Source of the DNA: Lingula anatina | Lineage: Eukaryota > Animalia > Brachiopoda | Reading direction: 5' to 3' | NCBI GenBank assembly: GCA_051362555.1 | Contig: CM120641.1 | Location: forward strand, 40,926,401-40,990,400 | Length of the DNA stretch: 64,000 bases | In this document: positions 25,030-59,468 of the stretch, piece after piece | How the letters are laid out: every line of letters starts with the position of its first letter | How positions within the stretch are numbered: the first letter of the stretch is position 1 | Position numbers and translations under genes: made by a program | Notes under the pieces: model-generated | What the model was told of the DNA's origin: nothing | What the model saw: the letters and a program-made list of their open reading frames with translations, nothing else | Databases searched by the model: none

Positions 25030-28000
25030 AAAAGTAAAGAAAAGAAAAGAAAATAGCAGGACCCAACATTTAAAATACTTTCAAATTGATCCGCTGTTTG
25101 GACAGTTTTAATGTACATTTTTTTTTGGGGGGGGGGGGGGGGCGAGGTAGCAACTTCAAAAACTTTCTTTTTTAATTTCAAAAGTAAACAGTTTTTATTG
25201 AGAAAAATGCGTGTAATTTTACACTAACAATTTATACCCTACTTTGTTAGATTCATAACTCCTTTCAGGTCGATGAATGCAATCCAGATTATCATACCAC
25301 TCTAGAAGAGTGCACGATAGAGGGAAGATACTGGCAAGGGTCTATACGATGTCGCCCCCCACGAGTCCTGTGCTACTTCGAAGCTGGCGACGGTACGTTT
25401 ATACACATATATAGTTATTTATAATACTACAGGAATAGAGAGACATTTTTGCTCTATTTAATAATTGCTTGAAAACTTTTGTGGCAAAGAGAGCCACCGG
25501 GATACTCGACACAGGGAAAGTAAGGATAATTATGCGGTAAGGCTAATAAATTATGATAACGTAATGAAAATTAACTGAAAAGAAAGATATGGTTTCTGAA
25601 ATATGAAAGACGAGAGTTTTCACTCTCTTCCCTGTTTTGCAGATATAAAGGTTGAATATAAAAGTACCTAATTTCAGCAATGTTTATCTTTTTTCAATTT
25701 GATATAAAGGGTTCATAAGTTGATGGTAACTAACTAAGCTTGCATGAAATTTCTTGAGTGCGAACGGGTTTTGTAAATATTTTCTAATTGAAGCGTAAAA
25801 ACCAAGCGCGAAAACGAGGATTACCGCTGTATCAACACGATATCTACGGATTTACCACCGTCCTCCGCTCACCCCCCCCCCCCCCTCCCCCAGTCCTACA
25901 CTTTTCCCCACAAACCACCGGTAAATACCACAACACCACCGATGTATTTTGTCCCTCCCCACATACGTGCAGTTTTCCTGACCTCGCTATGGATGAGCCA
26001 CGGTGTCTATTCATCAGAGCCCTGTTATTGATATGTACCGAGTGAGAAGAGTACACACGTGTCACTAATAAGTGATCAGATTATCTACTTGTTACTTTGA
26101 TATATTTACGTCTTACCATGCATGTGATATATTTCTTTATTTTAAAGTGTGCACGGGTGGTGCATCTCACCCTGATGTGATAGAACACAAGTGGGGCCAA
26201 ATTCGAAGTCCGCGGAGACCCGCAGTAACCAATTCTGATTACGATGTGCAATGCTGGTGGCTGCTACAAGTTCCACGTCAGTATGTTTTGAATGTGGAAA
26301 TCTTTGTCAAGGTAGGGATGTAGTTTATTTATATTTTGTAACAGTTACTAAGTGCTCGCATGACGTCTCACAGGTTTGATCTCACACTTTATTAAAACGT
26401 TTATCCTGTGGAAATTCACGTATTGCAAAACAAGTCAGTTTTACTGAGAAGAAATTGAATAATATAGAAGCAAATGCTCAAGGGGTTAGTACCTGAGCAG
26501 TTGCAGCTAATAATGATGAACAACCCCCCCCACACACACACACACTCAAAGACACACACATTCGACAATGAGTGTTGAGCGCATAATAACAGATTATTCA
26601 CTGTTTTAGATGGACGCTACCAACCTGACTCTGTACGACGGCTCCAGTGTCAACTCCAATGTATTATTGTTCCTGTGCGGCAGTGGAGAAAGTGAGCAAT
26701 CACTGCAAACGACTGGACATCAGCTACTTATTCACTACGACCAGGCTTCCTACACGGACTACTTTATATTGGGATATGAAGCTGGTAAGATCAATGAAAT
26801 ACTTGAAGTTTTACTTATATAAAGTCACAGTTTGTAAATCTTGACCCTTCCCTTCTGCATAAAGGTTTCCCAGTCTTAAATGAATGTATCTGAGAAATAT
26901 TGAAGGAAAAAGAATGGTCCTTTTGAATGGTATTTGTTTGTTAGTGTGATTGCGTTTTTTTCTGTACTTGTCATTGTTACATTCCTTTCAGTTTGTAATA
27001 GCATTCACGGAGTGCCCGCATGGCGTAATACAGCCAACGTCACGTCCTTGTATGGTAAGAACGTCACCTTGTTATTTACCGGGAGCGATTGGAATGCAAC
27101 CTGTGAAAATTTTTCATCCGAGTGCCTCAGTGGTATACAAGCCTGTCAACTGTCATGTGACGCGAATGCGTACTGCTGGACATTATACTATGATATACAT
27201 AATGGCAGCTGCTACAATGGGGTTCGCTCGTACCAAAACGGCAAGACAGTAGATCTCACAGATGTTCACCTTTTGCAATATGAAATTGATTGTACAGGTA
27301 AGAAACTGAAAAAGCACGATGAAAATATAGATGAGGCAGTCTTCGATAATGCTTCTAATTAAATATAAAACGTAAATGCCATTCACTTTTAGGCTGTGTC
27401 AAGACTTTTGTAACGAATATTGAATATTAGGTTACCATTGCGTGGATCCTAGTTTGTATCATACTTAATATTTCAGTCAATGGTTCGTGGTCTGCCTGGT
27501 CGTCATGGTCACATATGCCAGTCACGTGCGGGTCAGGGGTCATCAGCAGGACTAGAACATGCACAGATCCAAGTCCACATTTCGGAGGGTCAGACTGCGA
27601 AGGCAATTCCACAGAGGAGACTTTGGCTTACTCACAAAATTGCCCAGTCCCATGCCCTGCGCCAAATAGCACGAACGATTCTTTTCTTATCCCAATTTCA
27701 AATAGATCATATTATCTTTGGAATGAGCAACTTGATGTTTTCTGTGTGCCTGGGTATTCATCTTTGAGTGGCCAAACCGAATACACCATTACGTGTGGAT
27801 ACAACGGTACCTGGGACATGGAAAATGTAACATGTGTTTTAAAAAGTAGTTTAGTTGACTCAGAAACGGTTAACTACAACCATTCTGAGACGAGCATGGT
27901 AGTAACGTCGGTGTCACTGACTGGAATGGAATATACTGATAGTGCAACAACTATCTCGTATTCATCTTTGGTAGACTCGGTGCTGTTTAATGTGTCACAG

Positions 28001-31000
28001 GAGTATTCGCAATCAGCGGAACAAACCCTGTTATTCCCATCAGCGTCGGTCTTAATCCCAAGCAATGAAAATAATGCAACAGACCTATCTGAAGTGATAT
28101 CGACTATATCTTTTGATGGCACGTCCCCACCATCAAGTGACTTAGAGACAGACTTCATTTCAACGTCGATTGATTCTATTTTTATTTCAAATTTATCCAC
28201 ATCTTTGGATACGCTTCAACCAGAAGAAGTGTCTGACATGGCGAGTACATATGTACAAAGCAGTCAGTCTAATAACTCCAGTGTGAGTGAGGCATTACAT
28301 ATAACTCGAGGACAATTCTCAGACTTGATGAATATGGCGTCATCAGAGAGCATATCGCCCCCCACAGCTTTGACTACGTTTCCAAGCCTTTTTCGTCCTA
28401 CACAAGAGGAAACAGTGACGAATATTCCAAGTGTGTCTTCTTCAGTAAGCGAGTCTTATTCTCCCACAATATTTGCGGCTGTCCATGATTTCTCTTCATC
28501 TATAGAAAGTTTCAGTTATTTCTCCACAGACATTGGTTTTGTGTCGCCAGACATTAGTTTTGTGTCGCCACCAACAAGTGGATTTTTCTCTGACGTTTCA
28601 AGCGTGGCGTCTTCAGGAAGCGTGTCTGATATGCCGTCAATGTCTTCTTACCCCAAGCTTTTTTCTTCTTTGCTAGGAAGTGCTGCTTTATTGTCGTCAT
28701 CGGAAAACGTGTCCAGTCTTTCTTCAACGTCTTTGTTAGATAGTATCAGTTCCTATACTGTAAGTGACGTATCTGTATCGCCATCAACAATGGAAAGCAC
28801 CATGAGTGCTTCAAGTATTTCATCATCGGAAAACGTTTCCAGTCTTTCTCCAATGTCCTTGTTAGAAAGTATCATTTCTTATACTCTAGGTTATGTATCT
28901 GTATCGCCATCAACAAGAGAAAGCATCATCAGTGCTTCAAGTATTTCATCATCGGGAGACGTCTCCGAACTCTCTCCAGTGTCTTTGTTAGAAAGTATCA
29001 GTTCTTATACTCTAAGTTTTGTATCTGTAACGCCATCAACAAGAGAAAGCACAATTAGCGCTTCAAGTATTTCATGGTGGCAAAGCGTGTCTGATCTTTC
29101 CCCGATATATGATTTTCTTCATTTTTCCTTTACTCCAGAAAGCTCTGATTCTTACACTTCAAGTATTTTAAATATGCCTTCGCCGACAAGCCAAATCTCT
29201 GACCTCTCCATGTTTTCATCAGCATCAGAGATCGTGTCTGATGTTTCCAGAACGTCCGATTTTCTTCAGGTCTTCCCTTTTTCGTTGGAAAGGTCCATTA
29301 ACACTTACACATCGGCTGTGCTAAATGATCCACTGTCGACAAGATACAGCACCTATAAAGTTTCAGGCATGCCATCTCAGAGTGTGTCCGACATTTCCAC
29401 AATATCTGCATCGTTTCCAGTATTAGTTTCTTCATTTGAAATTCCCGGCACTTACACTTCAAGTATGGTCAATAGATCACCATCTACAAGAGAACCTTTC
29501 TCGAACATGACACATTTTTCCACAGTTGAAAGTCTTTCCGATTTTCAAAGTGTTTCTTTTCATCCGATGCTGGTGTCTTCAGTTCTCGAAATTACGAGAT
29601 CTTCACGAGACCAGTCTCTTTTTGTTACCATGCCTTCGTCAGCATCACTCTCCTCTATGCCAGTTACTTCAACACCTCTAAACGAATTATTTTCTACGCA
29701 AGAAGAATTACATTCATCGCATGTGTCTATTTCTACCGGAGACGCGCCAACAAAAACGAGTTCAGAGTCACCAACACTGAGTGGGGGCATTTCTTATACT
29801 AATACTGTTTCTAAAACGTCAGTGGCAACAGAAATGCCCATTTTAATCACAGAATCGTCAATAATGCCAAGTTTGTCTTTAGCTACAAAGGCATCGGAAA
29901 TATCGTCTGTCAATACACCCTACTTGCTTTCCCTGCAAATCTCAGAGGAAACGACAGTCTCTGCAATGCTCATATCTGAAATTACAACAGGCACCTATTC
30001 TAGTTCATTGGATACTATCACCGCATCGGCTCACATAAAGAACACGGGGACTAAAACTGTTTCTGCAACGTCAATGACACCAGTGATGACAATTTCTAAC
30101 AGAGATTCGCCCTCAATGCCAAGTTTAGCTTCATTTTCTCCAACCCGAGAAGCACCAACAACAGAGCCTTTGGTGATCACATCTGCCAATACAGCCATTT
30201 CATCAACAACAGAACCAAACTTCTCCTCTTTGCAAACCTCAACGAAAAGTTTGGCGTTATCTACATTTTCTTCCACGCAAGAAGCACCAGCAACAGATAG
30301 CCCAGAGATGACACCTGTCGGTATAGCCATTTCCCCAACAATAGAACCAAATTTGTCCTCTTTGCAAACATCATTGAAAACGACGGTCACTGCAAATACC
30401 ACACCTGACATCATGACAGATACCGAATCTAGTTCTTTGAAAACTACCACAGCTTCGACTCGTATAAAAAACACGAGGACTAAAACTGTCCTTAAAACAT
30501 CAGTGGGAGCAGTCACGTCAACTTCAAACATAGATTCGTCAGTATTGTCAAGTTTGTCGTTAGCCTCCTATTCTTCAGCCCGAGAAGCACTAGCAACAGA
30601 CACCCCGGAGATGACGTCTGTCAGTAGGTCTATATCCGTTTCCCAATCAACAGAACCGGTCGTGTCCTCTTTGCAAACCTCAACGAAAATGACGGTTACT
30701 GCAACACTTATATCTGATATCGTAACAGCCACCGCATCTAGTTCTTTGGAAACTACTACAGCTTCGACTCATGTAAAAAATACAAGGACTAAAACTCAGT
30801 CAGTGACACCAATGATGTTCATTTCAAAGAGAGCTTCGTCAACAATGTCAAGTTTGGCCTTATCTTCATTTCCTTCCACACAAGAAGCACCATCAACAGA
30901 AACCCCGAAGATGACGGCTGTCAGTACAGCCATTTCCCCATCAACACAACCGAACTTGTCCACTGCAACAACCACATCTGACATCATGACAGGCACACAG

Positions 31001-32774
31001 TTCAGTACTTTGGAAACTTCTACATCATCTTCTCATGTAAAGAACACGATAACAAATCCTACTACAACAGGAACTATAATTACTTCCACGAATTCTGCTT
31101 CCTCTAAACGCCCAACAACAACAACAACAACAACAACAACAACGGTGACAAAAAGCACGACAAGAGAACCCTTGAGAGGTATGTAATCCTTACAAAACTG
31201 TAACAGAACATTTGTTGTAGAAGTAAGAACTAAAATGGTAGACTTTTCCGTCATTTTATGTTTATTTTCTGATATCCAGAAGAACAGAGTAATGTTTTAT
31301 CCCAGTCATATGTTTTAAGCATTTGCATATCTCTAGGGTTATTCTGTGTGTTGAGGTTTATTTCTATAAATGATATAAAGGATATCATTCATATTATCTA
31401 AAGAAAAAAAAAACTTTATTGATAATTGTATAAACGGATCGATGGGTTGGCACTATTGTCATTGGACAGTCCTTTTTGCCTATGTAGTCTGCTTAATGTA
31501 TTTATATATGCAGAGGGGTGCAGTCGTTATCTTTCATTAGTCATTTTCATGTGATATTTCTTCACTTAAATTCTCGTGTTACAGGGTGTTCAAAGGCGGA
31601 TATATCGGTAACAAATGCCGAACCAGACATCAATATGGCCGTGGTCCCAGCGGGTACCTTAGTACAATTCTCGTGTGTTACCGGTCACATTTTTCAGTCT
31701 GGGTCAACTAGAAAGAATGTCTGGTGTTTCAACACTGAGTGGCAGACACCGTCCGTTACATGTGTCCCTATATCGTGTGGGTCCATTTCTAAGGAAAACG
31801 CCGTCTTGTCACCAAACAGAACCGAATACGTGTATGGAGATGAGATTGAAGTCACTTGCGTAGTTGGGTATTCTTATCCAAACGGTAGCAAGAAAGCTGC
31901 AATCAACTGCACTGAAAGTGGTGATTTTAGCTACAGCACACTACATGAATGTGAAGGTAAATATGTGTGCGCGTTTTCTTGTACGCATACGCTTGCGCAC
32001 TCTTGTTTATTTTCGTAGATTCAAAGTTTACTAAAAAGAGAAGCTGAACTATCACAGCGTGACACACGAACGCACACATCTTATTTCTTTAGTACAAAGT
32101 TATCAGTTACTTTTTAATTAATAAAAAAAACATGAGAGAAAGACTGATGGTAGGGTACGCTTATTAACGTTGCGTTTATTTCAAATTATTTTATTATTGT
32201 TGTTGTAGTTGTTCGATGTCCGTCACCGCCAAATGTCACTTTGACTGTCAACAATGCCAGCACAACGGGACCTATGCCCTATGGTACTGTCGTAGCCTAC
32301 AACTGCACTGAGAACAGAACCTATGCAGATGGGAGTGAATCTAGGTCGATGTTTTGTGCAGACAACGGAAAGTGGAGCAAAGTTATTTCAGGTTGTTTAG
32401 GTAAGTAAATGAGAAAAGATCTGTTTCGCTTTTTACACAGAGTGATAGTAAGAGGGGCGATTTATTGATGAAAAAAATGACCGAATCATATTTTTAACAT
32501 AACTGAGACATTTAATAATATAAAATTTATTTTTGCAGAACAAGCTGTAGTGGCACCAGTGCCCCGGAAGCGGAAACACAATCCAGAACCTAAGGAAGCT
32601 ACTGGTGCAATTGGCATTGGAGCAGTGGGCCTGAGCGTTGTGTGCGGGCTACTGGGTTGTATTTTGGCCCTGGATATCAGCACCCTTGGGAAGCACCTTA
32701 GGCTTATGAAAAGAAATTTAGGGTTTAGAATCCAGAGGAAAAAAGCTCACAGGCAGCCCATGGAACTGATTTAA
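13255..32774 (+). CDS. Gene B: giant (~3499 aa) mosaic single-pass membrane glycoprotein: SP - mucin - 3 Sushi - 6 SRCR - CUB - PAN/apple-like - TSP1 - Sushi - mucin - 3 Sushi - TM (DMBT1/scavenger-receptor-like)
   Basis: 21 exons totalling 10500 nt in frame: 13255-13306 (signal peptide MAWKLSLLFLFQCYVIW), 15233-16666, 17057-18286, 18610-18759, 19861-20061, 20486-20680, 20944-21285, 21789-22133, 22481-22621, 23099-23314, 23559-23921, 24110-24445, 24738-24961, 25269-25392, 26148-26311, 26610-26784, 26992-27297, 27477-31178, 31585-31956, 32209-32400, 32539-32774. SRCR: G.V.V..GTVC...W...A.V.CR..G, C.G.E..L..C. CUB: GQIRSP..CWWLLQVP..LTLYDGS..LCG. TSP1: WSAWSSWS..TCGSG..RTRTC. Confidence 0.85.
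15700..16420 (+). repeat. ~144-bp (48-aa) coding repeat x5 in the first mucin exon of gene B
   Basis: ATQET-type anchor recurs at ~15721, 15865, 16009, 16153 and 16294. Confidence 0.88.
18796..18893. mobile_element. 98-bp MITE with CCC..GGG termini and TA target duplication (EnSpm/CMC-like)
   Basis: ta|cccagcagacaaacgacattgattc ... gaatcaatgtcgtttgcctgctggg|ta, with internal caacgttga sub-repeats. Confidence 0.82.
19212..19412. mobile_element. Degenerate copy of the palindromic MITE at 77-317
   Basis: Core cgcctactacaagctgtaagggggtaattaactttcg vs cgcctactgaagctgctacggggtatttaattatcg; similar ttccca..gatcga / tcgatcta..tatgg ends. Confidence 0.55.
21526..21651 (-). mobile_element. Short hAT-like MITE (CAGG..CCTG termini, C-rich core)
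   Basis: caggtctgtagccag ... ttggccacgggcctg. Core aaaagggcggttctttcgaa is close to the reverse complement of the core at ~48140. No clean TSD. Confidence 0.55.
28690..29080 (+). repeat. 126-bp (42-aa) Ser-rich coding repeat x3 in gene B
   Basis: SSSENVSSLS..SLLxSIxSYT..VSVSPST unit; anchors at 28701, 28827 and 28953. Confidence 0.88.
29940..31060 (+). repeat. Degenerate ~90-140-aa Thr/Ser coding repeats in gene B
   Basis: KNT(G/R)TKT-like anchors at ~30038, 30467, 30776 and 31039; recurring (T/A)(R/Q)EA..T..P.MT...AIS...EP...SLQTS. Confidence 0.8.
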
Positions 32775-33708: not shown

Positions 33709-36700
33709 TCAAATCATTGTTTGCAAGCGGCCAGTTACAATCCCATTAGGTACTGCCGGTGTTTTTGGTTTTATGACCAGTTTTCGTCTCAGTGCCGTGT
33801 GCAGTAACATGTCTGCTATTTCAAAAAGTGTCAAAAAGCTGGCCCCAACAAATAATCCAAGGGATCCACCAATGTCACCTTAAAATGAAAATAACAAAAT
33901 GATAAACAAGTTTGATAAAAAAACTTTGATTGGTCAAAAGATAACTAGCACGTAAAGTAAAGCTCTAAGTCTTCATGAACAACCTACACTTTTAGACCTT
34001 TACACTAGAAATAATAAGTTATCTTACGAACATTCTTTTTCATTTTCTGAACATGTGAACTTTATCATCATGCTGCATAGAAAATAAGCAAAAGAATAAG
34101 TCGTACTACTAATTGTTTAATGTTTTCATTGACTAAAGGCAAATGCTTTTTACGTAAAAATCATATCCGAGGTATCTGGCTTTAATATCAACACGTACTC
34201 CATAGCTTGTTTATGTCATATGCCTTTTGTTGTTCGATCTCTTCAATCTGGAGTTCTTTGAGGAAAACATCAAACTGCAAGAAGTTTTCCCTGGAAATCG
34301 ATGTATTAAAAGCGTTTTATTGTAGGTTAACATAATATGGTGACAATTACTTAAACGGTAATTTGACAATTTGAAAATTAATATTGTTACGTGTACGATA
34401 GAAATACGTCTTCTTATATTATTTTACAAAATCTTTGCTCATAAAAATGAGTTCCAATCTGTGAAATACTAACTAAAATGGTTCAGACCTGAAGAAAGCT
34501 GCATCTATCCCATTCCCCTTGAGATATTCTTCAAGTTGATTCTTCAATACAACAAAAGCGTCCAGAAACTGTTTATCTGTAGTTCCCATAACGCCAGACA
34601 AATCCGACTGGCTTTGCAGGTTCTTAAATATTCTGTTCAGTCTGCTACATGTTTCGTTTAAACTTATATCTGAAAAGTCTCCGTTTAAACGGCTCAGAAG
34701 GACGGAATGATTTCGCGACAGAGCGTTGACGCGTTCTGGAGAAGTGTTGAGAAGATGTGCTATATGCTCAAGAATTTTTCGTTTCTCGCTGCTGGTAACA
34801 TTGTGACTACTAACCAACATTACGTCACTGTTAAGTTTCTGGTAGAACTTCTTCAATGACCCTTCTTCCAGCATCGTTTTCCAAACGGCAATGTAATTTT
34901 TTCTAAAAACTTCTAAGCTGTCTGTTATGTCACGTGACCTGGAGTGCAGTCCATTCAAAGCTTTTCTTAATTCCTGGAAACTGGTAACATGTGACTCATT
35001 TAAAAATGTACTGGCTAAATTCGTCTTGGTAAGCGACTTGTTGGAAATATAGTCTTTTGCATATCTCACCAGAGAATATACGTCTGCCCAGCTAACCAGT
35101 GCCTTCGATTCAAGACTATTATTCACAATTTTTAAAAGGAAATACAATGAGTCACGAACTTTGATTAAATTTGTGACACTGTTATTAAACCTTTCGCGTT
35201 TTTCGTTCACAATGTCTTCCGACCTTTTAACAAGTCTATCATGTAGAAGATATTTGCGGTAGTTAAATGCTCTTGCATTTCTTGCAATCTGAACTTTGCA
35301 TTCCTCGAATCTGGTCCTATTAAAATACCTGTTATCCAGTACATTTTTCGACAAATTTCTTAGAGCAATGATGCTGTCAATATAACTTTGTGTAGCAGAC
35401 GATAGATACATCAAGTATTCCTGTTTATAAGGATGGTATTGAAGCATTTCGGGGTTGTTGAAAGTGTCATCGTAACGCTCGTCTGGCAAAGTCACAATAT
35501 AATTTACAATTGGTGTTCCATTAGTGTAACTGGCGTGTACTGCAGTTATATTATCTAAGGCCCTTAGTGCCAAATATTGTTTTTTTAGGAGATCCATGTC
35601 TATAATTTCGAACAAAACGGTTCGTAAACAGCATTTTTCCTGCTCCGGGGTTGCTGTAGTTGACCTGATGGCTGAATCTTCGAAAGCGCCCAATGTTTCC
35701 TGATATCCTGACGTCACGTGACTAAAAGTCCGTTCTTCCATTACCTCCCAACCTCGCACAAACCCGTTATGAATAGAATACCAAAGTTTATGTAATGCGA
35801 CATCTTGAAAGTTGACGCGCGGAGCAATGGTGGCTAGCAGTTGACCTATCTCATGGCGCAAATGTTGTAAAATCTTGGACATTTGTTCCAACATTGTCTG
35901 TATCGCATCTGCTGCTCCGCTTACTTTTAAAATGGTTTCACTGTCCGCCCTAAAAGTATTCTGGTTCTTTTTTTGAAATATGTCACGCGCGGCTATATAG
36001 CGACGTTGTAGTTTTGTCACCTCTCTGTCGTTCAGTAAAGTTTCCACTTGGAAATTCGAAATGGATGCGTATGATACAGATGGGTCATAGATGTGCTCGT
36101 CACATGGGACAGGGCAAGGGGATTCCATTGTGTCGCGGCGGTAGGTTTCTGAAGTGAAATGGACAGATAAATATATGATTGTTGAACAATATGTGATTAA
36201 ATGGAACATACACAAATGAATTTATAAATTTAGACAGATACTGTAGAAACTGGAGATATGTAGATCTATAAGCATATGCGGCAATGAAACTCTATTTCCG
36301 TTAAAAAGGGAGTAATCAACATTGCCTTTGGTCAGAAAATTGACCTCGTCCAACTAGATGCAATGTGGCTGTCAGAGATATAGCGAAGAATGACACAGCT
36401 AAATTTAATGAGTCGGAAAATCCGCACACAATCAGGTTTTAATCATCCACGGTTCCGGTCCCCATCAGTTACGTACCTAGTAACGGCACGACACAAGAGA
36501 TGTACTGGGTTAAGTTGCATATCGGGAGTTTTACTGAAAAAGACAGACAATCAATTAGGCCACTTAGTAATGTACGTGCAATACCGCTAAGGTATGACAG
36601 ACAGACGATCGATCTTGTGTGTGCATGTGCTAATATTGAAATTGGTGCTACTCGGATTCAGAGAATTACAGCGGCAAACGACTGGTAAACACTACCTGGC

Positions 36701-38830
36701 GGTGAGAACTCCATAGATATGTCAATACAACCACATACGTCCGTCATAGCGCGGAGTTTGCGGTCGACAGAACACGTGTGACTTGTATAATGGTCAAAAT
36801 AATTCAGCGGTATGCTGTCGTCACACTGCCCATAAGGAGGTGGAAGGTTTTTGACCTGCAATCAAGATATAAGAGAATTCAAAACTTTGATAATGGTGGC
36901 AGTCGGTTGAAACTAATGAAACAAACTGCAATCTGTCCATTCATCAGATGTTCATTAATGCCATCGGAATCACTTTGTTATGCGGGCAGTAAAAATTTTC
37001 GTAGGTGCACCGCTTCATCCTATTTCAGCACTCATTTTGCACTGGGAAGGGTTGAAATTACTATAAGCCCCCTTTATTTGGGACATATAAAATAGGAATC
37101 ACTAGAGTATTTGTCTTTTAACCGTTACCTTAAGCATAAACAAGCCTAAAAATGCATGCGAACCGGGAGGTATGGCCAGACCCAAGTCTTTAACCAGTGG
37201 TACGTCAGAGCTGTCGTGGAGTAGTATTTTGACACCGGCAGCATCAGTTGGCCCGGACATATATTCATACTGTTCCACGTTCAGTGTTAAACGTAACCCG
37301 TGCTCGGCTCCTGAATGTGGTAAATAAGATGTAAATCAACCCAAAATTTACAATTTATTTTAAAGAGGCAATCGCAGAAACCTACTTTAATTTCAGTTGC
37401 AGACCTGATGTACATTCACTATTTCTCACTTTCTTTTAGCATTTCGGCAGAAGTAAGGATTTATAAAATGTGATGGTGAAATTGGGCATTTAAACTTCTC
37501 ATAAACTTAACTGATGACTCTCTAAGATTATCTGTACTTTACCTGTCTGCGTGACAATCCTTGGGTGCAAATCTGCATTAAACGTAAAGCAAACGCCTTG
37601 GTCAGTGAATGTTTTAGTTAACGAACCCTCAGCACAATCTTTGCCACCCCAACGACAACTAAAGAGAAAAAATAAAGTGTACAGTCAATTATAAAATGTA
37701 ACTGTTTATCCATGCTATTTTAATGATGGTACATGCATGGTATCTCTTAAGCAGACGTTAAATCATTTTATTAGAAGAAGAAATATGATCAGGTATCATC
37801 ATTACACTCTAGATCAAAAAGACGCGTCTGTTAAAACACTGGTCACTGCTTGTATTTCAAACATATTATATATGGACGTGTCCGTGCGCTCTTTAGAATA
37901 TTTAAAAAAAAATCTCTGAGAACTGATGTGAAATAAAGTTAATAATATTCACGTGATATTAAAGCTGGCAGATATTGTACGTGCTACATGTAAAGGAAGG
38001 TGCCCCAGAACCTGTACCTGACAATCATGTCTTCCTCCTCGTGTCCTGTTCTCTTCAGAAGGTCCATAAAGGAGTGGGACCCCAAGACAGCCAAAGACTT
38101 CTTTCTTTCATCGTCACTGGCACCGTACATATCAAAAAGCGCCTCGTACCAACCATTTTTGGCAGCACGCGACGCTCTGAAATTAGTAACAGACGTAGGC
38201 CTATATTAGACAAATGCGTATAGCAGGGGGTTTGGGGTTTTGTTATGTTATAAAAAAGCGCACCATGCTTATGGAATTGCATCCAAATGAAACTTAATAA
38301 GTATTTGCGATACTTTGCAATTTTCTTGTAAAAAGATAGTATACTTTTCGCCGGTATGATTAACTGCTAGGAATTATCATTATTAATTTAACTGCACTGT
38401 AGATAATTTTCTAAACCCACGTTTGTCAGTAAAAAGTACAGACTGTACAAAGAAGGGCACGCTAAATTGCGTACAGGGCCAGCGCAAACTATGAGCTCAG
38501 CTTTAAACTCATAGTTTGCGCTGGCTCTGTACGCTGAATTACCGGCCGTTTCCTACTTTAACGTTCAATTTTCGCCCCTCGTTCCCTAGTGTTTAAGTAG
38601 GAAACCGGCCACTAATTCAGCTTGGATTACAGTATGCGCATGGCTCAACCATATTTTTCTACCTGAAAGCGTTCTGGTTACAGAATGTGACCGCGGGAAA
38701 GGTCACATTGCTGACGTAATTAATTTTTACGTTGACCGCCACGGGACAGGACAGGAAGAGAAGAAGACTCATCACCACTTGGTAAATGAATAAGCTGAAT
38801 CCTCCAAGGACGAGACCTATCCAAATAATC
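33709..38830 (-). CDS. Gene C: ASIC-like DEG/ENaC channel (~920 aa identified, N-terminal exon not located) with a very large knuckle-region insertion
   Basis: Exons on the minus strand: 38830-38663 (TM1 IIWIGLVLGG.. and FPAVTFCNQNAFR), 38176-38018, 37658-37543 (CRWGGKDC..TDQGVCFTFN), 37310-37129 (GLRLTLNVEQYEY..GVKILLH..GLAIPPG), 36855-36696 (LPPPYGQC..CGC), 36533-36477, 36148-34489 (CPVPC..YDPSVSYAS plus insert), 34290-34199 (RENFLQFDVFLKEL..EQQKAY), 33878-33709 (SDIGGSLGLFVGASFLTLFE, TGA). All phases are compatible. Confidence 0.92.
38469..38621. repeat. Two abutting inverted repeats (hairpins) in an intron of gene C
   Basis: gcgtacagggccagcgcaaactatgag (38469-38495) / ctcatagtttgcgctggctctgtacgc (38508-38534), 26 of 27 complementary. 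Then gctgaattaccggccgtttcctactttaac / gtttaagtaggaaaccggccactaattcagc (38533-38621). Confidence 0.85.
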
Positions 38831-39251
38831 CTGGAACATCAATAACAGTCCATCAGTTCAGATACGTTCTTGTGTCATTCACACTCATTTCAATATGTGC
38901 TCCATCGTCACGTACTATAAATGTATCAAATGTAGGGTGGAAATGAGTCTAAATAGTTTTCTGCTTCGTTTATGGGTTAAGTTATCGAAGCACAGTGTAA
39001 CAGGGAAAGTGTTTCCTTTTTCTCGGTTCCTTGTGGATTACCTCAAACAGGGTAAATGGAAAAGACTGTGTCGGTAGATTTTAAAAAATCATAAAAATAA
39101 ACAAGCAGATAAAATGGTGAGGCTGTCCCCGGAAGTAGATACGTTGCGCAATAACGTTGCAATAAACTTGGTATTGTCGCGCTCATGGAAAGGAGACTTC
39201 GGTGCCCTATTTTTGTAACGAACATGGAGACTAAGGCGTGGTAGGCCTATA

Positions 39252-39806
39252 CCGGTGTGGCGTGTACCGCTCGGGGCGTGAATCATCCGTTCTGCTCATG
39301 CGCACAAAGCGCAGGCAAATCTGAGAGACTTCCGGCGTGTACAGTCCGTCTCTATAGAGTCATCAATACATTCTTAGCCTTTAATGAACATGCGCTGTTG
39401 AGAACATACTGCAAATTCAAACATAATCTTTAGAAATATTCATATCTTAAAGATGTTCACCTCTACAGGGATTTCCCTCAGGTGGCCATATCAACACACT
39501 AGCCTAGTAAAATCAATATTAAAATAGTAGCCAGCAGCTGAATAACGACGGCCCGTCCACGGTAGGTTCATCCATGCGTCGAGCTGTAATTTGACGCTGA
39601 TTCTCTATCAAAATTATCAATTAACACATGAATTTAATCCCCATCATAGTAAATGTATAATGTGGTAGGAAATGAACTAGCCGAATATAACAGTACAGGT
39701 AAATAACAACGGATCATTCACAGAACGGCTCATACACGCGTCTGCTGCGTGTACAATCGGTCAGGACGGATGGTTCACGCAGAACGGACCGTACACGTGA
39801 CACCGG
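39252..39806. mobile_element. MITE-like element with imperfect CCGGTGT-starting TIRs
   Basis: Left end ccggtgtggcgtgtaccgctcggggcgtgaatcatccgttctg resembles the reverse complement of the right end caggacggatggttcacgcagaacggaccgtacacgtgacaccgg. Confidence 0.55.
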
Positions 39807-42800
39807 AAAAGAGACGGGGAGGGGTTAAGTTGATCATCAACCTGCACCGCACCAAATTTAATTTTCATTAAACTTAACGGTTTCATTTCCGATTTTATAT
39901 CTTTAATTAACTCACAGCGCAGATATTAGGCCTTGGTTTTTATCGGATATTAATAAATGAACGACTCTTCCTGAAATGAGATAATAAGCACACTGGCCGT
40001 TTCACTGTGGAAATACGTCATTCCCCTGTTACAGATTAAATTGTTATTGAATGTAGAATCTCATTGTCGAATTGTTATCCGTGAGTAGTTTGTCATGGAA
40101 TGGAAAGGTCGCGCGGGACACCATTAGTCTGATGGACTGCTAGAGTCAATAAATTGTTTTCAATGTTTTATTCCTTTTTAGCTTGATTTTGGTTTGTTTG
40201 CACAGCTATGATTTATTACAGGGCTAAAGGTTGATTCACTACGCAAAAGTGGATCTGAATAATTGATGTATCAGGTCAATATTTGCTAAACAAAATGATA
40301 CTAATTTTTCATTTTTACAACAAAAATGAAATACGGTTTATAGGCTTAGTACCTGATCGCGCTCTATTGTTGTCTGCGCTGTTCTACGCCAACTCCCTAA
40401 GGTTATTTTGTGAAAAACATGGGGACAAATCTAGTTCACAGTGTCCCCGGGGAATGCATTGAAACATGATATGAGGGCGGCTGTCCTTCAGACATAGTCT
40501 CCATTTAAGGACAGAGCCCAGCACCACGGCATCGGAAAGGGAGCAGCAAAATGTACATGTGGCGACATTTTAAGATTCTGGGTAGTGGGTCAAATATTTT
40601 GCATTTAACCAAAGAATTTTTATAGTTTAGTAGCATCAAAAGCATGAATATAAAATCTAAGAAACTGATAAATCAAAATTTAAGATTTCACACATAAAGA
40701 AGAGGTTGATGAATATTAAATTCAAATACGCTTGATGATTTAATTTGATTGAATGGAACTGCGAAATTGACATTGGGATTAACTAACAATGAAAACATTA
40801 CTATAACCGTAATTTTTTTTCTTTGGAGAAAGTCATGAAAATGATGAGGGAAAATGTAAAATAAATAAGAAGGGTTTTACGTATCTGCGAGCTGTCGTCC
40901 CCGTGCTTGCATAACATGTTGAAATGAGCACGCGCTTCAATAATACATGTATCTTTAAAGGAGAAAAATTACACAAAAAGCCCTATATGCACAACTCCCT
41001 TTTTACGGATGCGTTATTGGTTATAATCTGTTTTTGTGCGTGTCGACCGACAATTAGTTATTGAGTCATTCGTTTTAACGTAACGGAAGGCTATTATTAA
41101 GGGAAATAACTTTTAAAATACCGTAAGTACTGTTTGTACCGGGGGTACGTAAAAGCTCACTGCACATATTAATTTTAAAAAAGGCTAAACTGATTGGAGC
41201 TTTTTTTAATTAGAAATATAATTTATTTTTGACATTTGAGAAACTAACGCTGATGACATCACTATAACCAAATAACTGACTTGATATCGTTTTAATTGAT
41301 TATATATTGATGAAGTGCTCAATCGAAAAACATTCCAACTGTGCTGGTGTACCTATGCCTTACACCATTTGCGACATATTGTTTATCAAGAAAAGGGCAC
41401 GGGTTTACCCTGGACTGGGTAAGACAGTGTGGCCACAGATTTATTGGGACCGAAGCAAAGCAAATTCGAAGTTTACCGAAAAAATGATTGATATTTTTTA
41501 AGTTTCCACAATAATAAGTATATTTCAAGTGAGCAATTGTTAAAATTTTGATATTTATGTATGCCAGGTGTTTACGTCCATGCACGTACATAACAATGAA
41601 ATAAGTGTGAGATACTTGCATTTCCTGTATACCTTTTGGGGGTGTTGGGTGGGGTTATGGTGTTTAAGAATAAACAAACAAGCTGTCATTTTCTATGCTG
41701 TCTAACTCAACATGCAGTTATTAAGACTGAGATTTAGCTACGGTTTAGTCAATTAAGTCTGTAGAAATTAACGCGACTGTGTTAAACATGAGTACACTTA
41801 AAATTATCGATTAGTTAACAAATGCTTTAAACCGCTTAGGCAAGACTCCCCCTTGCTGTACGCGGCCTCGAGAGAACAATTGCAGATTTTGAGGAAAAAT
41901 CGAAACTTGAGACAAAAGGGATGAGTTTTGATCTTAATTTGTGCGTTGCAGTAAAACTGTGCTCTTTGTATGATTTGTGAGTATGATCAAACACGTCTTT
42001 AACTAACATTTGAACGTTAACGAAATAACAAAGGACTTTTCTTTTTTTCTCTCTAGCCGAATCAGTGTATTGTAAATTTTGAATACACCATGCAACATCA
42101 TACATGTACGAATTATTTCAAAGCGTGCTCATCCTGGTAAAAGATCCATCCTTCATACAAACTACACAGGTGCTATTCCGACGTATTTTCCTGTTACACT
42201 GTATGTGGGAGCAGTTGGTACAGGTAGGCTACATGTACCGTGCAACCATCGTCAAACCGCATTGGAACGCCAACTCGCAATCATGCAATTAAAACAGTAC
42301 TTATGATCATCTAGACCTTAGAAACATCGAATTGAGTTTTCAAGAAGAAGGCCAGGTATACTTGGGGATATATTGACTCCGAAACGAACTTTATTTTGAA
42401 TAGAATTGCTCAGTCGATGTAAAAATCAATATAAAATTCGTACTAGGTAACATAAGAGTGTAATTTCACAGACCAGCTGGACTTGGTTTTAAACCAGTGC
42501 AATTTCATTGTTGATTAGTCTATTTCCCATCGTTTCGAAACAAGTGGTAACAAATGTAGCACAGGGGAGATAGATGCGTTTTCCATTTCCATGACATTTC
42601 TGATCCCATCTGACGTTTTCCTGGGCCTCGCAGTACATAGGTGGCGTCTATTTTTTGTTCCTCAAGCAAGGATTTAAAAGAAAAAGTGATTATCAATAGG
42701 CAATATCTGTATTAGATTTAATTTGCCGGAGGAAAACACTATGTAGAGTTGTGGTCTACAAGAAAAAGAGAACAAGGCAAAATATGTATTAGATTTAATT

Positions 42801-43660
42801 ATTAGCGGTGACTGTCTAAGATTACGTCTTTGACAACAGCTATGCAGAAGTAAAGCATTATTTTTATAATGTTAAAACATGTAATAAAACAATGTTAAAA
42901 CATTGACTAATGAAAACCATAAGAGAAGATAATTACACTATGTATACATATGTCATCAGTGTGCAGATGCAGCTTGAAATCTTGCGAAACGGAGGTGTAC
43001 CACGGGGCCTATGCTAAACTGCGTTTTAATGCCAATGTTTTTTAAAACGAAACATTATTAATGGTAATAATACTAAAAACATTACCCGTTCTTTTCTATC
43101 TGTCCCCAACTCAAATTCTAAAAGCATATTTTAGGACATGATTTGAATCATGCCGTTAAATATATGGAGATTCACAGATTCAGCGGATAGACATATACAA
43201 ACAGTTGTAAGTATAACCTATTCATGATAGTGCTCAAATATGCTCGAGTGACTAATTTCAATTAATGAAATTACATTTGAACTTCATTTCCCATTCGGAG
43301 AAAGTCGGTTTTACATGTATAGATTTTTTGTACACTAATGTTATCACCTTTACAGAGAGATATGAAGTATTTGCTGATTTATGTCCAAGAATCGAAAAAT
43401 CATTTTAAAATAAAGTATAACCACGTTCGATTAAATTGAGTTTACTAATCTTCACCTTTCGCATAGTAGGTCACTCAGCAGAGACTGTCAATTACAGTGC
43501 AAAGAACGCTTATGCAACTAATGTAATAAGTTGTCGAAAAAAATTACCTTCTGGTTCGAAATGGCGTTTCGGCTGTAACTTGTTTTAATCCGTGGAGTGT
43601 TGTATTTTGACTAAACCGAAAGAGTTCTGAACGCCAAGTCATTGATTTATTCCGTTTTAC

Positions 43661-43790
43661 CTTCGCAGGTTCTTCGCCCATGGTCACTGTGTTCGTGTCC
43701 GGAACGTCTAGTCAAATCTTGTCAGTTGTTTGGTATCAGAAATGAAACAATTAACGCTTGCCCTAGTTTACGATCCACAGGCCATTTATA
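43661..43790 (-). promoter_or_regulatory. Candidate TATA box plus short first coding exon (MGEEPAK), possibly the 5' end of gene C
   Basis: Minus strand: TATAAA at ~43790-43785, then gaccATGGGCGAAGAACCTGCGAAG|gtaaaa (43681-43661) in good Kozak context. The link to gene C is not demonstrated. Confidence 0.3.
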
Positions 43791-44548
43791 ACTATCCAGA
43801 AGTCAATTAATGCGAATGACGTGTCCTCACCGCAACGCTTTGCAACTGTATAATATGACGCTCGAAGTATCGACGTTTAATCTGATGTAAGTTGCTGGAG
43901 AGTTTCTTTGGTTTTGCCGATTTATTTGCCCTCGTCGGTTCAGTTAATTTGGGTGTTATTTTATGTGTTTCATTTCATGGTAATTACATAATGCTTTTCA
44001 TTTCAGGTCTTTTTTTCGACTCAAACGTAGGGATAACCATTTCAGGAGAAAAAAAAAAACGAATCGTGGAATTGGTGTTAAAGGTAAAATGTATGTACTA
44101 GTTGGATTTTGGTACCCTAGGTTCTAGATTCCGGTATTGCCAGCTCGATCTTGATTTCATATATAACCCATAGTAGCAATACTAGTAAAAGCGACTCCAC
44201 CACAAGGTATATTTAGCAAGCTAGCTTTTACGTTGCTCTGACACTCAGGGTAGACTTTGGCTGACTGGGATCACAGTCAGCGACACAATATTTCAATACA
44301 ACTCTGTACGACACAATGCAGTTTATATGATGTCAAAAAACTTAAGTACAATTATTTTAAAATAATGAACATTTCAGACAATATTCATATTGAGATCTTC
44401 GGTTATATATAATAATACAAATAATACCATATCACACTGATGTTACACAAAATAAGCTATAAAAACACATATGAGGTAAATGATGATTTATTTGAGTATA
44501 CTGGTAAATGTAACTAAAGCGAGTAGACAGGGCCCTTAACCCCACTAC

Positions 44549-46723: not shown

Positions 46724-47378
46724 ATGTATGTGACTGATTGGTGTTGATATTCATAATAAAATTTCAAGAGTAAACATTTTTATGTCATTGGTTGCAATCT
46801 AATTTAGATGAAACATGGCACTTTTGTTTAGATGTAATTTCATCATGAATATCTTGGGCTAATGGCTCACGAGGTTGAATATAATGGGAGTAAGCCCCCC
46901 TTCCCCGGCTCATCCGCCGATGTTTTAAATTGCCTTCAAGTGGTATGCTCAACATAAAAAGAAAACTCACAGAGCTCACACTTTCACTAATGGAAAAATA
47001 TAATCAACACCCCCCCCCCCAAAAAAAAAAAAAGTAGGAAAAAAACTCATATAACAGCAGTTTGTGGCACAAGTATAAATCATGGTGAATTGTGAGGAAC
47101 AACAGTTGCAATCAAAACGCTGCGTTGGAGTGTTATCGACTTTCGATAGTCAACTTGTCGTGTGCAAAATTCTTGAAAGGCGGCAAAGGGTCAACGTGCC
47201 GTGTGCAAAATTCTTGGAAGGCGGCAAAAGATCGACAAAATACTTATTTGACTGAAATCACAAAACAAATAGTTCAAGGCTGTTCTTTCCATTGATCTCA
47301 CTCCCTATGAAATACATTAAGCAGTAAGACGGTTGTCTGCCACCTCGCTTTGTGTGCAAAAGTCTCCAGCGAGACAAC

Positions 47379-50300
47379 ATGGCGGCGTCCATCGCAGGGA
47401 AAGGTCTAGAAACAAATGACACAGTTTATGACGACTTTTCTGATGCATTTTCAGTTGTTCAGAAAGAGTTAAATCATCTGAAATTTTGCTATGATAATAC
47501 TGTGTATCAAATTGAGAAATTCGTGAAAACTTGTCCTCATGTCAATATTGAACAATTCCTTCCTAAAGACACACAGGAACGTGTTCAACGGGTCATCACG
47601 ACGCAGCCGGCAATCATTGTGATCGGACAGTCAAACTGTGGAAAAAGCAGTTTAATAAATGAAATTCTACGAGGTTCTATTCTCCCAACCGCAGAGGTAC
47701 CGTGCACTTCGAAAATTGTTCGACTGAAACACAGCCGTGAGCCATACTTTCAAGAATTAGACAAAGATGGTAACTGTATTGAAGGAAAACCGAAGGAGAC
47801 GCTAACTAAAAAGTTAAAGGTACCTCGATCAGTTGTTGCTGTACCGGGAGCAGAGCGGAATGACAAGAGTAAAGTTGAAGGTGTTGTGGAAGTGGGGTTT
47901 GATCACCCCCTGCTGGAAAAGGGCATTTCTATCGTTGATGCACCTGGATTCAGTGAAAATGCTACCTTGGATTCTCTTGTAACTCAGTGTGTTGAAGGAA
48001 TACTGGGCGTGATTATTTACGTTATCGATGGACAGCACGGTGTCCGCCAACAGGTAGGCCGCGTGTTAGTTGTTTTTAAATGTCTTTAATATTTTATATT
48101 TCTAGCCAGGGGGGGGGGGGGGGGGGGGGGGGGGTTCGGGGGGTTCGAAAGAACCACCCTTTTTGCTGGGAAAAGGTCCACTCTGGGTAAAATTTGACCT
48201 AGGTACATGAAGTTTTTATGGAAAAAGGTCCACTTTTTCAAAAAAAGAACCCCCCTTTTGAAATTGCTGGCTAAGGGCCTGAGTATTTTGCACATACCGA
48301 AAAGTGACACGTATATAATGCGTTGGATAGTTAAAAAACGTTTATTCGAAGGCAATTGCATAATGCAATCTACCCGGTAATGCAAATTTCTGGTTACAGG
48401 ACAGAAAGAAAATAACCGAACTCCGGAAGAAAGTACCAAGAGCTACCATATTTTATGTTTGCAACAAAGTTGAAGTAAATGAAAAGGCGCTTAGAATGGA
48501 TCAAACAGCCGAGGAAGCTGATTTGCCGAGAGAAACCCCTGATAAAGCAGCAATGACATTCAAAGCATTGGCTCACAGTGGTCTACTGGACAGCGAAACC
48601 AATACCGACGACAATCCGTTTTTTGCTGCGGTGTCGGTGAAAGATGTTCATCGATCGAGAAAGAGAGGTCAAAAGGACGAACGTTTTCAACAATTCACAA
48701 TTAAGTTTTTGAAACTGGCAGTACAGACTATGCACAGCCACACAATTGATGCTCTATTGTCCGTGGTAGACATGCATAACGTTCTTTTCTACGGTATGTG
48801 TGGCTCACCAACTCAAAGGGCATTACTCTCGCATTTCATGGCCGAGCTAATAAAGCACTCCTTCGAATTCTTCGACAAAACAAAGAAAGCCATTAAGATA
48901 CGCAAGTCAGTGCTCGTGCATGTGGTCGAGAAAACATTGGCTGACAATAAACATGAAATTATTCGAGACGCGATGAATATGAATTTTTTGCCCATAGTTG
49001 GTGATACAGTCAGGAGAAATGAAATCATCCTTCAGTGCAGGGAGCAAATAAAAGATCACATCGTCATTAAATGTGACACACTGATAAGAGCAAAAATGGC
49101 AGCCACATTCGACGAGATAAACAAAATCTGTCAAAGAGATCTTCGGGATGTATTAGTTCACATACGTGACGCATTAGGTTATAGCATTTGGCACGATATA
49201 ATGGGGTTTCAACAGAGCATTCTTACCTGTCTCAACTTTACGGATAGAAATGTTCTGGTTTTAACCGAAACAATGTTTGATATACTTAAAGAAAACACGT
49301 TGACATTTCTAGAATATATGCAAGGGTTGCATGTCACCAAAGAGTGGAAAACCAAAGTAGCAGAAAACATTTTTTCACTTATAGACCCAAGCGAAACTGC
49401 AAATGATGCGGTGAAACTTATGAAAAAGAAAGTGGCTAGCGCACGAGAACATTTCGAGCAAACCCTAAAAAACATGGACAGTGCCGCATCAGCCATAGGC
49501 AAAATGAGCCCTCAAGAGCAAAGATCACTCGAAAAGGTGTCCCCTATTGTTGCACAGAACAGCTGCATGGCTATGGCTCTTCTGAATAACAATTTATATG
49601 GTCTTCTAGAGTTTGGGGAGACTCAAAGCACCTCAGATAAAAGCCAAGTTAGACTGGTGACCAACCCTGCTCAACTAGTAGGAAGATATGGAGAGTTCGC
49701 ATATGTGGGGAAGATGGTCCAAGCAACTGATCTTCATCTTCTTCCACCAAACGTGGCAATGGGTTTTCTCACTGCAAGGTATGAAGGAAAAAAGTATATA
49801 CGTCTTTTCTTCACGCTTTAATTCACAGAAAGCTAACTTATCAAGGAAGATTTTCGTCAGCCCGTCAGTTCTTTTTTGAAAGTTTTATTCAGATATTTCA
49901 GTTGACAGCTAAATGGAATACTGAAAGTAATTCATTTCTGTCAAAAAAGTCACTGTATTCTCGGAGTAAATTTATCAGTTTAAACAAAGGAAGGGTGTTA
50001 CACAGAGCATTAACTAGGGCAATGATAAATGTATAAATATATATAATAGATAATTTATAAAATCATGAAAAGGAAATAAAAAGATTACTTGATAACACTG
50101 GAGAAGGAACAATTCCCTTTGTCCGTTTTATCCACTAGTTTCTGTTCTACATATTTTAGGCTGTTACCTCACAATGCAAACGTCCTTCACTATCTGGACG
50201 TGGTGATAACTACTGAGTTCCAACCTGTTCTGATCAGACAAAGATACACCATCAACTTAATGGATGCAGTGCAGACAACCAAGTGCATACAAGAGAAAGA

Positions 50301-51121
50301 GCGCAAAAGAATACTAAATGATGTCATTCAGGGCTTGGAGCATGTTCTGTATTTTGCAGTAGAGATAGATCTGAAACCTACCCATGTGGTCGTAAGTAAA
50401 AAAATCTCTCAATATATATTCTCCCAATATATACTCATAAGATGTCGATAATTTCTGGCCTTTTTTTTTACATAACCCCGCCAAATGTAGTCCCCCTTTT
50501 ATATTTATTTCTCCCATCCATAAATTGTCGCAGTTTGATACAATATTGTCAAAGTATAAGAGGTTGTCAGAATATTTTCAAATGTCACACTCAATGAAGC
50601 ATTGATTGTTTGATCTTCATCGTATAACATTCTCTTAATACCATAAAAATTACATATATCTATTGTTTTTGTCAAACTATGGTCAGTATTATTTCAAAGT
50701 CAGCTTAGTTCGTTATATTTTGCAGACCTGCTCGCAAAAAGATGCCCGTGAAAGACAATGGAAAATCCTGCTAGGTCCCCGCGAAACCAGTAACGTGTAT
50801 CCCAACGGCTACCATCCTTTTCATCTCCCCCCAGAGGCATTTGACAAAAGCAGCGTAGGTTTTGGTGAACATCAGTACGTCTACAGTCTAGGCATTCTCC
50901 TTTGGTTGCTGTTTAATCCTGAGTATGCGTGGCCAGAATTCGCCAGACCAGAGACTTCCCGGGATGATTTTATTCTAGCCGTGGATGAAGGAAACAAACG
51001 CCCCGACGCTACCAAATGTTCTCCCGCAGCTCAAAAACTGTTCGAACGCTGTTGGAATGCGGACCAGACAAGAAGGCCAAATATCAAGACATTTATAAAG
51101 GAACTAACCAAAATATCATAA
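47379..51121 (+). CDS. Gene D: DSTYK(RIPK5)-like protein, dynamin/mitofusin-type GTPase + helical stalk + PSEUDOkinase (893 aa)
   Basis: Exons 47379-48053, 48400-49778, 50160-50391, 50726-51121 (2682 nt, open). G1 GQSNCGKSS, LPTAEVPCT, G3 DAPG, G4 NKVE. DSTYK-like stalk VTKEWKTKVAE..IDPSETA..HF. The kinase C-lobe is recognisable (PPE, VYSLGILLWLL, RP..C..LFERCW..RRP), but the Gly loop, alphaC-Glu, HRD and DFG are degenerate. Confidence 0.88.
48103..48281 (+). mobile_element. G-rich hAT-like MITE fragment in gene D intron 1
   Basis: tagccagg(G)n..ggttcgaaagaaccacccttttt..aaaaggtccact x2..ctggctaagggcctg; same family as 21526-21651. Confidence 0.6.
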
Positions 51122-54467: not shown

Positions 54468-55223
54468 ATTGACACAACCTTGCAGACATGGATTGTAATT
54501 TAAAATGTTAATTATTGAAAACGTGATACTTTGTTTATCAATACTGTAACTAACCTTATCAAAATAATAAAAAGTGTTTTAAAGTAAAAGTGACAGTTGT
54601 TTTGTGTCTTAAGTGAACTAGTGAATTTTCTTAACTTGTTATTCAGAAATACATTCCAATAAACTTCCTTGCAAGGTCAGTTAACACTAGGATGAATAAG
54701 GCGCTGTAAGTGTGATTGAGTGAGGTTAATAAAGTTGACAGTTCTCGGTACCCTGTCATAGATAGATAGGTTTAGGTGACTGTGACTTTATTTGTTATAT
54801 TATTATTATGCATGATAACACAACATCTCTAAAGGGATAAAATATATACTCTCTGGGCACCTATAGTGAAAACTCCGGCGGTTTGGTGAAGTGAACTGAC
54901 ATTTTCCTTCTAGCATAAAGGCTAAGGTAAAGTAACCTTTATTGAAATAGGAATTTTTTATCCTTTGTTTGTCAGGGTCTAAGTGACGTCAATAGCGATA
55001 GGTAAATACTGCCAACAAATAACCTGATATCATATTTCGTTCAATGAATGAGCTGGGGAGCAGAGACTAGGTTGGAACAGCCATCACCTGGTTCTTAATC
55101 CTAAGTTTTCGTCGTCATAATACCAAAATATAATAGGCAGCAATATGCAGGATTGAAAAGGAAAGCACCAGTTCTACTTTACCGCAGCAAACTGCATCTA
55201 TAGGGAAACATCGACAATTTACA

Positions 55224-59393: not shown

Positions 59394-59431
<38 letters not shown>

Positions 59432-59432
59432 G

Positions 59433-59468
<36 letters not shown>

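Follow-up and report, generated by a model that had tools for sequence, protein, structure and literature searches.

A DEG/ENaC channel subunit of the brachiopod Lingula anatina carries a 522-residue insert, predicted to be all-helical, between the palm strands beta10 and beta11 of its extracellular domain. In this study, we found that this channel belongs to a conserved lophotrochozoan DEG/ENaC subfamily, insert included, which is wider than the first-pass annotation of the same DNA had seen. The insert is almost certainly a real, conserved helical domain. The usual picture of a DEG/ENaC ectodomain is a single conserved 'hand', about 300-500 residues in size, that varies chiefly in the finger. 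In the subfamily described here, a domain without a match in Pfam or PDB is added at the knuckle and makes the ectodomain more than twice as long. The ectodomain of the channel is about 830 residues, and about 300 residues is the figure given for ASICs in the text of PMC9949801. No description of the insert was found in the open full-text literature; subscription papers, picture-only figures and some supplement sequence were outside reach.

The window is the whole stretch of DNA analysed, 64,000 nucleotides in length. The channel gene lies on its minus strand, from 43681 to 33709. As shown in Table 1, ten exons were spliced into one frame of 965 aa. All nine introns begin with GT and end with AG, and the spliced frame has one stop. 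The translation contains the HG motif, TM1, FPAVTFCN, the Cys-rich thumb, DIGG and the GAS belt, and TM1, TM2 and the GAS filter are intact, as had been reported from the first reading. No second copy of the gene was found within the 64-kb window. The nearest named record is Lingula anatina XP_013414060.1 (P0011), with 97% identity over the long exon. The insert of this RefSeq model has 511 aa versus 522 in the window, and the 11 residues missing near the insert start include a conserved A-R-D/E motif. Since the published transcript in the supplement of PMC10507113 has these residues, the P0011 gene model is probably wrong near the insert start. The model also lacks the N-terminal exons.

Table 1. 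Exons of the channel gene and parts of the insert, in window positions.
Feature	Position	Strand	Evidence
Exon 1: start codon, cytoplasmic N-terminus, TTLHG (HG) motif	43548..43681	-	translation; joint 38829/43547, 4 reads
Exon 2: TM1, beta1 (Val at ASIC proton-sensing His site), FPAVTFCN motif	38663..38830	-	translation, alignment
Exon 3: finger region	38018..38176	-	translation; joint 37658/38018, 6 reads
Exon 4: beta-ball/palm strands	37543..37658	-	translation; RNA joint
Exon 5: palm strands	37129..37310	-	translation
Exon 6: Cys-rich thumb, first part	36696..36855	-	translation; joint 36533/36696, 8 reads
Exon 7: thumb, second part	36477..36533	-	translation; RNA joints
Exon 8, 1,660 bp: thumb end, beta10, whole insert, last knuckle helix	34489..36148	-	
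First knuckle helix (alpha6-like), predicted, aa 357-364	36033..36056	-	DSSP H31-38 of exon model
All-helical insert, 522 aa, aa 357-878	34491..36056	-	translation, AlphaFold2 model
Distal four-helix bundle 'head', predicted, aa 444-646	35187..35795	-	model range 118-320
Last knuckle helix (alpha7-like), predicted, aa 875-879	34489..34502	-	H549-553, exon model
Exon 9: beta11-beta12, TM2 start	34199..34290	-	joint 34290/34489, 7 reads
Exon 10: TM2 with DIGG and GAS belt, C-terminus, stop	33709..33878	-	read depth; joined in published transcript

Other features of the window were also observed. In all four runs compared, divergent RNA reads that fit only in part gathered on repeat-like stretches in intron 1 (39251-39807) and upstream of the gene (44112-44183), which are likely multi-copy elements transcribed elsewhere. 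An inverted repeat of 27 bp, nearly perfect and with a 12-base loop, lies in intron 2 (38469-38534). A plus-strand gene at 27431-32774 stands tail to tail with the channel gene, about 0.9 kb apart. It encodes TSP1 and sushi domains, a Ser/Thr-rich mucin-like stretch of ~1,100 aa, further sushi domains and probably a TM segment. The same large surface protein may also include the C-type lectin and SRCR exons found at 6.8-24 kb. Two similar plus-strand units (47328-51121 and 55137-62023), each with a dynamin-like GTPase ORF, a ~484-aa ORF and a protein-kinase exon, look like a tandem duplicate of a GTPase-kinase gene.

The first-pass annotation had placed about 520 residues between YDPSVSYASIS (beta10) and RENFLQFDVF (beta11) within one open exon of 1,660 bp, and 522 were counted. 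It had given 25-30 residues for the equivalent segment of chicken ASIC1, whereas the alignment with chain 6ave_A gives 19 (residues 382-400). Its description of the insert as poor in Pro and Gly, rich in sequons and amphipathic-helical agrees with our counts. Pro and Gly make up 1.3% and 2.7% of the insert, compared to 5.4% and 6.3% of the rest of the protein. The insert has 12 N-x-S/T sequons versus 5.7 +/- 2.1 in 5,000 shuffles, 0.7% of which reach 12. In each of the six long helices tested, the column-averaged hydrophobicity has a periodicity of 3.46-3.70. No extra TM segment was found, with no 19-residue window above KD 0.88, and no convincing internal repeat was detected (best hhalign probability 29%).

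Seven public raw-read RNA runs under the same species label were mapped to the window. The channel gene was expressed in three runs of one study (X7, X8 and X9); no exon reads were found in X1, X4 and X5, and X6 had 4 reads. The joints that the first-pass annotation had drawn at the two ends of the long exon were both recovered: 36477/36148 was spanned by 9 reads (X7, X8, X9) and 34489/34290 by 7 reads (X7, X8). All 15 bins from 34436 to 36190 had depth in at least one of the pooled runs X7, X8 and X9, and five of six wholly intronic bins were empty. The reads come from other individuals and show a few percent divergence from the window. Among the differences listed in exon 8, 9 of 16 are silent and none is a stop. 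An early donor that removes the insert had been considered at first reading; no joint inside exon 8 was listed in the RNA reads. Since the depth of exon 8 is only about 1-7x, a minor isoform may exist. The last joint, 34199/33878, was not listed among the RNA joints, and the trimmed alignment of PMC10507113 shows this exon 9/10 joint. The supplement of that paper holds a 750-aa assembled Lingula transcript of the same gene with the insert included. The channel sequence is already in a published data set, from whose alignment the insert was trimmed.

We then compared the exon 8 protein with 1.84 billion clustered sequences. It matched 223 clusters (50% identity) at E<=1e-3 and 157 at E<=1e-10, and the best 150 of the 223 were examined further. 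Among these, 27 match the channel core too and 123 are exon-sized fragments; six fragments have longer flanks, five of which run into DEG/ENaC beta10 or beta11 motifs and one of which is unexplained. An occurrence only inside DEG/ENaCs, raised as a question in the first-pass annotation, was borne out among the best 150 of the 223 clusters, where no other protein type was seen. Named members came from the brachiopod, annelids (Capitella, Dimorphilus), nemerteans (Lineus, Tubulanus), bivalves, gastropods and cephalopods. No non-lophotrochozoan member was found among the 30 of 150 clusters checked by name, 7 of which named no organism, and no nematode protein was identified among the insert search matches. 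As weak evidence against long fusions, the insert profile matched none of 2,990 candidates of 1,863-5,000 aa, a range with the length class of the nematode protein DEL-10 outside it. Metagenome scans with a nematode motif pattern and with one family member gave no matches, and an ESM Atlas search with two inserts gave no usable match.

Of the 39 proteins with both motifs, 38 have an insert of 474-538 aa, and the remaining one is truncated at 233. In an alignment of 133 rows, 74 stop exactly at the column where the exon 8 donor site of the window falls, so the single long exon appears to be shared. Segment lengths are nearly fixed at ~20-25% identity (114 rows), with 10th-90th percentiles of 47-48 for the down-stem, 61-62 for the third stem segment, 200-206 for the head and 41-48 for the up-stem. 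Conservation is ~1.5 bits per column in the head and base versus ~1.0 in the stems. The head carries the motif F-x-R...E-R at aa 455-466, and its conserved positions are F455 (94%), R457 (79%), E464 (84%), R465 (85%), R501 (76%), R/K515 (90%) and N525 (81%). The sequon at N525 is retained in 103 of 133 rows, and the family median is 10 sequons per insert. By reading of the helix register, the head motif, the further Arg residues and the N525 sequon would lie at about the same height. The two length classes of the family differ in the base region of the insert, and P0054 has an additional Thr-rich mucin-like stretch of ~250 aa there.

Core and insert trees of 27 proteins gave a rank correlation of 0.87 between patristic distances, a value from non-independent pairs and trees without an outgroup. 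Both trees join the molluscan members, apart from the longer-insert group, and two Capitella proteins shift. The insert evolves ~1.8 times faster than the channel core in these 27 proteins. This pattern fits one old insertion, inherited along with the channel, and judged from the sequences the insert would have been kept since before the split of molluscs, annelids, nemerteans and brachiopods.

A single unusually long exon whose GC is somewhat lower (39% versus 46%) could also be an artefact of annotation, a neutral passenger, a retained intron or the ORF of a mobile element, and the low RNA depth, with three runs (X1, X4 and X5) lacking exon reads, is in line with this. However, both joints and the whole exon are present in RNA, and the listed read differences, more than half of them silent, contain no stop. 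The insert occupies the same site in four phyla with a tree broadly congruent with that of the core, and its predicted fold is confident. Within the insert, no family of Pfam or NCBIfam scores above its cut-off, no transposase, RT or viral family in either database matches it, and no repeats flank the exon. These observations also speak against the transposon ORF that the first-pass annotation had considered. We regard an artefact or passenger of any of these kinds as very improbable.

The fold was predicted with AlphaFold2 on the exon 8 protein using a 134-row alignment; exon numbering plus 326 gives protein numbering. The insert model is all helix, with a pLDDT of 92.4, a pTM of 0.85 and five models agreeing. 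Helical runs lie at 41-144, 148-164, 171-209, 241-272, 277-368 and 384-426 (exon numbering), with shorter ones to 553, and include predicted long stem helices of about 104, 92 and 43 residues. The head boundaries were assigned by structure search (VIA-align) as an up-down four-helix bundle at 118-320, and the remaining long helices outside the head would form a stem and base. At 1.5 A per residue, the helix lengths by themselves would give a stalk about 14-18 nm high. The ASIC ectodomain is about 8 nm high. When two copies of exon residues 45-544 were folded together, the score was 0.00, in a run that left the alignment unused and the chain's own fold uncertain, and this speaks neither for nor against self-association of the insert. 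Foldseek with the insert gave no match at E<=0.001 in PDB or viral models, and sequence and Foldseek searches of PDB yielded only weak generic helical matches. With VIA-align, the head matched only generic bundles and the other insert parts were barely covered. No Pfam, PDB or viral match explains the insert, and no sign was seen of an already characterised domain, the other possibility named in the first-pass annotation.

The first-pass annotation had proposed an insertion in place of the knuckle, three copies of which could form a helical tower. The all-helical fold stands, and the predicted helix lengths fit a tall stalk, but the replacement of the knuckle is not supported. A full-length AlphaFold2 model of the nemertean member P0064 (pLDDT 87) keeps an ASIC-like core. 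In this model, two short helices are seen, one (394-403) after beta10 (379-391) and the other (928-934) ahead of beta11 (935-953). The alignment of the homolog with ASIC1 halts at ASIC1 residue 380 and restarts at 394, where it covers the last knuckle helix of ASIC1 (394-403), matching the insert end. Because of these two short helices in the P0064 model, the insert is placed in the loop between the knuckle helices. About 500 residues are likely inserted there, between two knuckle helices that appear to be retained in the models.

The channel class is supported by the Pfam ASC family (PF00858), to which P0011 scores 142.5 bits against a cut-off of 23.6 and which 12 of 12 longer members pass. 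Two TM helices and an ectodomain with palm, thumb, finger, beta-ball and knuckle are present in the full-length homolog model, and its core matches ASIC1 in Foldseek with an E of 4e-21. The best core matches are ASIC1/ASIC2 and BASIC (ASIC5), of clade A, with E values of ~1e-63 and ~1e-55. By scores only, P0001 is closer to ASIC (1e-63) than to ENaC (~1e-32 to 1e-33) or FaNaC (1e-28 and 1e-20), and an identity with the FaNaC/WaNaC clade B was rejected. The name 'ASIC' used in the first-pass annotation is nevertheless too narrow, as the proton-sensing His and Lys of ASICs are absent. At the beta1 His site (H73 of rat ASIC1a) the window reads P-V-A-V, and His occurs in none of the 26 members covering the site (27 aligned); the ASICs compared have it. 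At the palm Lys site (K211), a gappy region, Ile is found in P0064 aligned with ASIC1 and Thr in the window.

Two published brachiopod channels were weighed as candidates for this gene and turned down. Of these, g20471, the Lingula ASIC already characterised, is a different gene, which retains the beta1 His. DiaaNaC has its TM2 0' residue at N442 compared to aa 910 here, so its ectodomain is of ordinary length. According to the text of PMC11750451, DiaaNaC is a BASIC-like clade A channel that neither protons nor bile acid open. Several paralogs were named per genome in the family: 3 in Lineus, 3 in Tubulanus, 2 in Capitella and 3 in Pecten. In the Capitella protein P0027, TM2 (IGIALLLYLGAS) is degenerate and the model lacks the HG motif; from its sequence, P0027 is possibly a non-conducting subunit.

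Several molluscan and nemertean members are named 'degenerin-like protein del-10' by NCBI. In the supplement of PMC9822975, C. elegans DEL-10 (T28D9.7, NP_495302.3, 1069 aa) has ~367 residues between beta10 and beta11 by hand count. This insert is at the same site as the lophotrochozoan insert and ~150 residues shorter; it begins with an acidic low-complexity stretch, and the R...E-R core of the head motif is absent from the supplement sequence. Six anchors common to DEL-10 and the family profile are collinear by eye in that sequence. These are A-x-E-x3-R-x11-LI-x2-L (in the base, ungapped), TFS-x-V, an N-x-T sequon, YES-x3-PL (as in the scallop P0001), YL-x6-K and L-x2-YL-x8-F-x2-DN. In the YL-x6-K anchor, Tyr and Lys are conserved in 93% and 89% of the family. 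Judged by eye from these residues, the DEL-10 insert is probably homologous to the lophotrochozoan insert, and its shorter spacers suggest a shorter stalk. As a weak screen, six head-motif strings gave one chance match in the sequence file of PMC9822975 (173,333 characters; cnidarians, placozoans, deuterostomes). A wider reading is that there is an ancient protostome DEG/ENaC branch, from DEL-10 to clams, octopus and lamp shells, with a three-stalk knuckle tether on the 15-nm scale that is gated by force or contact. We hold this only with considerable doubt. If true, it would offer the first self-contained test of the tether model for the DEG/ENaC family, and should DEL-10 prove to be a member, a knockout strain of C. 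elegans (ok1705) and a clone for oocytes are already available.

In ASIC architecture, the palm strands beta10 and beta11 lead to TM2, and the insert site is atop the trimer near the axis. We tentatively propose, with confidence a little short of an even balance, that the stalk is a built-in tether, whose head binds an extracellular partner and through which force passes to the gate. Three stalks would surround the three-fold axis. In the head, the conserved Arg/Glu/Asn patch may bind matrix or a protein on an opposing surface, and load on the stalk would move the knuckle helices, hence the palm strands beta10 and beta11, and then TM2. A tether fits best with the rigid stalk, its fixed length and the conserved distal patch. 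The fixed length need not mean a ruler, since long helical bundles resist insertions for structural reasons, and the stalk height would not be fixed across protostomes given the shorter probable DEL-10 insert counted by eye. The tether is also favoured by the absence of ASIC-type proton sensors and by DEL-10, which PMC10424705 lists, from a pH screen of oocytes expressing it alone, among the subunits with currents no different from water controls, as would be expected if a stimulus or partner were missing. However, this silence is incomplete, as a figure legend of the same paper gives amiloride-blockable DEL-10 currents at pH 7.4. The del-10 knockout appears in the strain tables of two proprioception papers. 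Against a tether, the stems are the least conserved insert parts, the closest solved relatives (ASIC and BASIC) are chemically gated, and the knuckle helix alpha6 of FaNaC is described as relatively static in gating in the text of PMC11026163.

In another explanation, a soluble ligand (peptide, protein or glycan) would bind to the head as its receptor domain, and the long helices would shift piston-like to open or close the pore. It is modelled by analogy on the four-helix sensor domains of bacterial chemoreceptors, and we consider it unlikely, with some weight of its own. The head is among the most conserved insert parts and resembles four-helix ligand-binding domains (PcaY 6s18, Z 13.0, rmsd 2.7, 143 aligned), and related channels are ligand-gated, with a FaNaC peptide pocket that includes knuckle helix alpha6 according to PMC11026163. 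However, designed bundles (best Z 15.9), talin and others score on a par with PcaY, and Z under ~13 is common for helical bundles. No pocket was identified in the head, a soluble ligand needs no stalk of such height, and the conserved Arg/Glu pairs may be internal salt bridges.

The stalk could also anchor or place the channel at a cell-cell contact, cilium, synapse or matrix, or pick partner subunits, while a stimulus at the finger or thumb gates the pore. The many paralogs and the degenerate TM2 of P0027 suggest heteromers or non-conducting subunits, the inserts carry many sequons, and the finger, thumb and pore are otherwise complete. However, the two palm strands that the insert directly connects lead to TM2, and load there would be expected to affect gating. 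We judge such an anchoring role to be distinctly improbable.

DEG/ENaC gating through extracellular tethers is a long-standing question, and the candidate tether described here is built into the subunit, where it can be shortened, deleted or pulled. ASIC1 shares the HG motif, the Cys-rich thumb, DIGG and GAS with this channel, but has 19 residues at the site where 522 are found here. PcaY and TorS sensors and the rod bundles of talin and vinculin have the same up-down four-helix layout as the predicted head (Z 11-13); at 4-9% identity, this is a common arrangement with no demonstrated kinship. As reported in PMC6955349, N-glycans of the palm and knuckle of alpha-ENaC are shear-force tethers, and each loss cuts the shear response by ~40%. 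These glycans and the tether model for nematode degenerins set out in PMC10148893 resemble the mechanism proposed here in that force would arrive via extracellular attachments, one of them in the knuckle. The tether in those systems is either a glycan or a matrix protein distinct from the channel, whereas here it would be a large folded stalk within the subunit.
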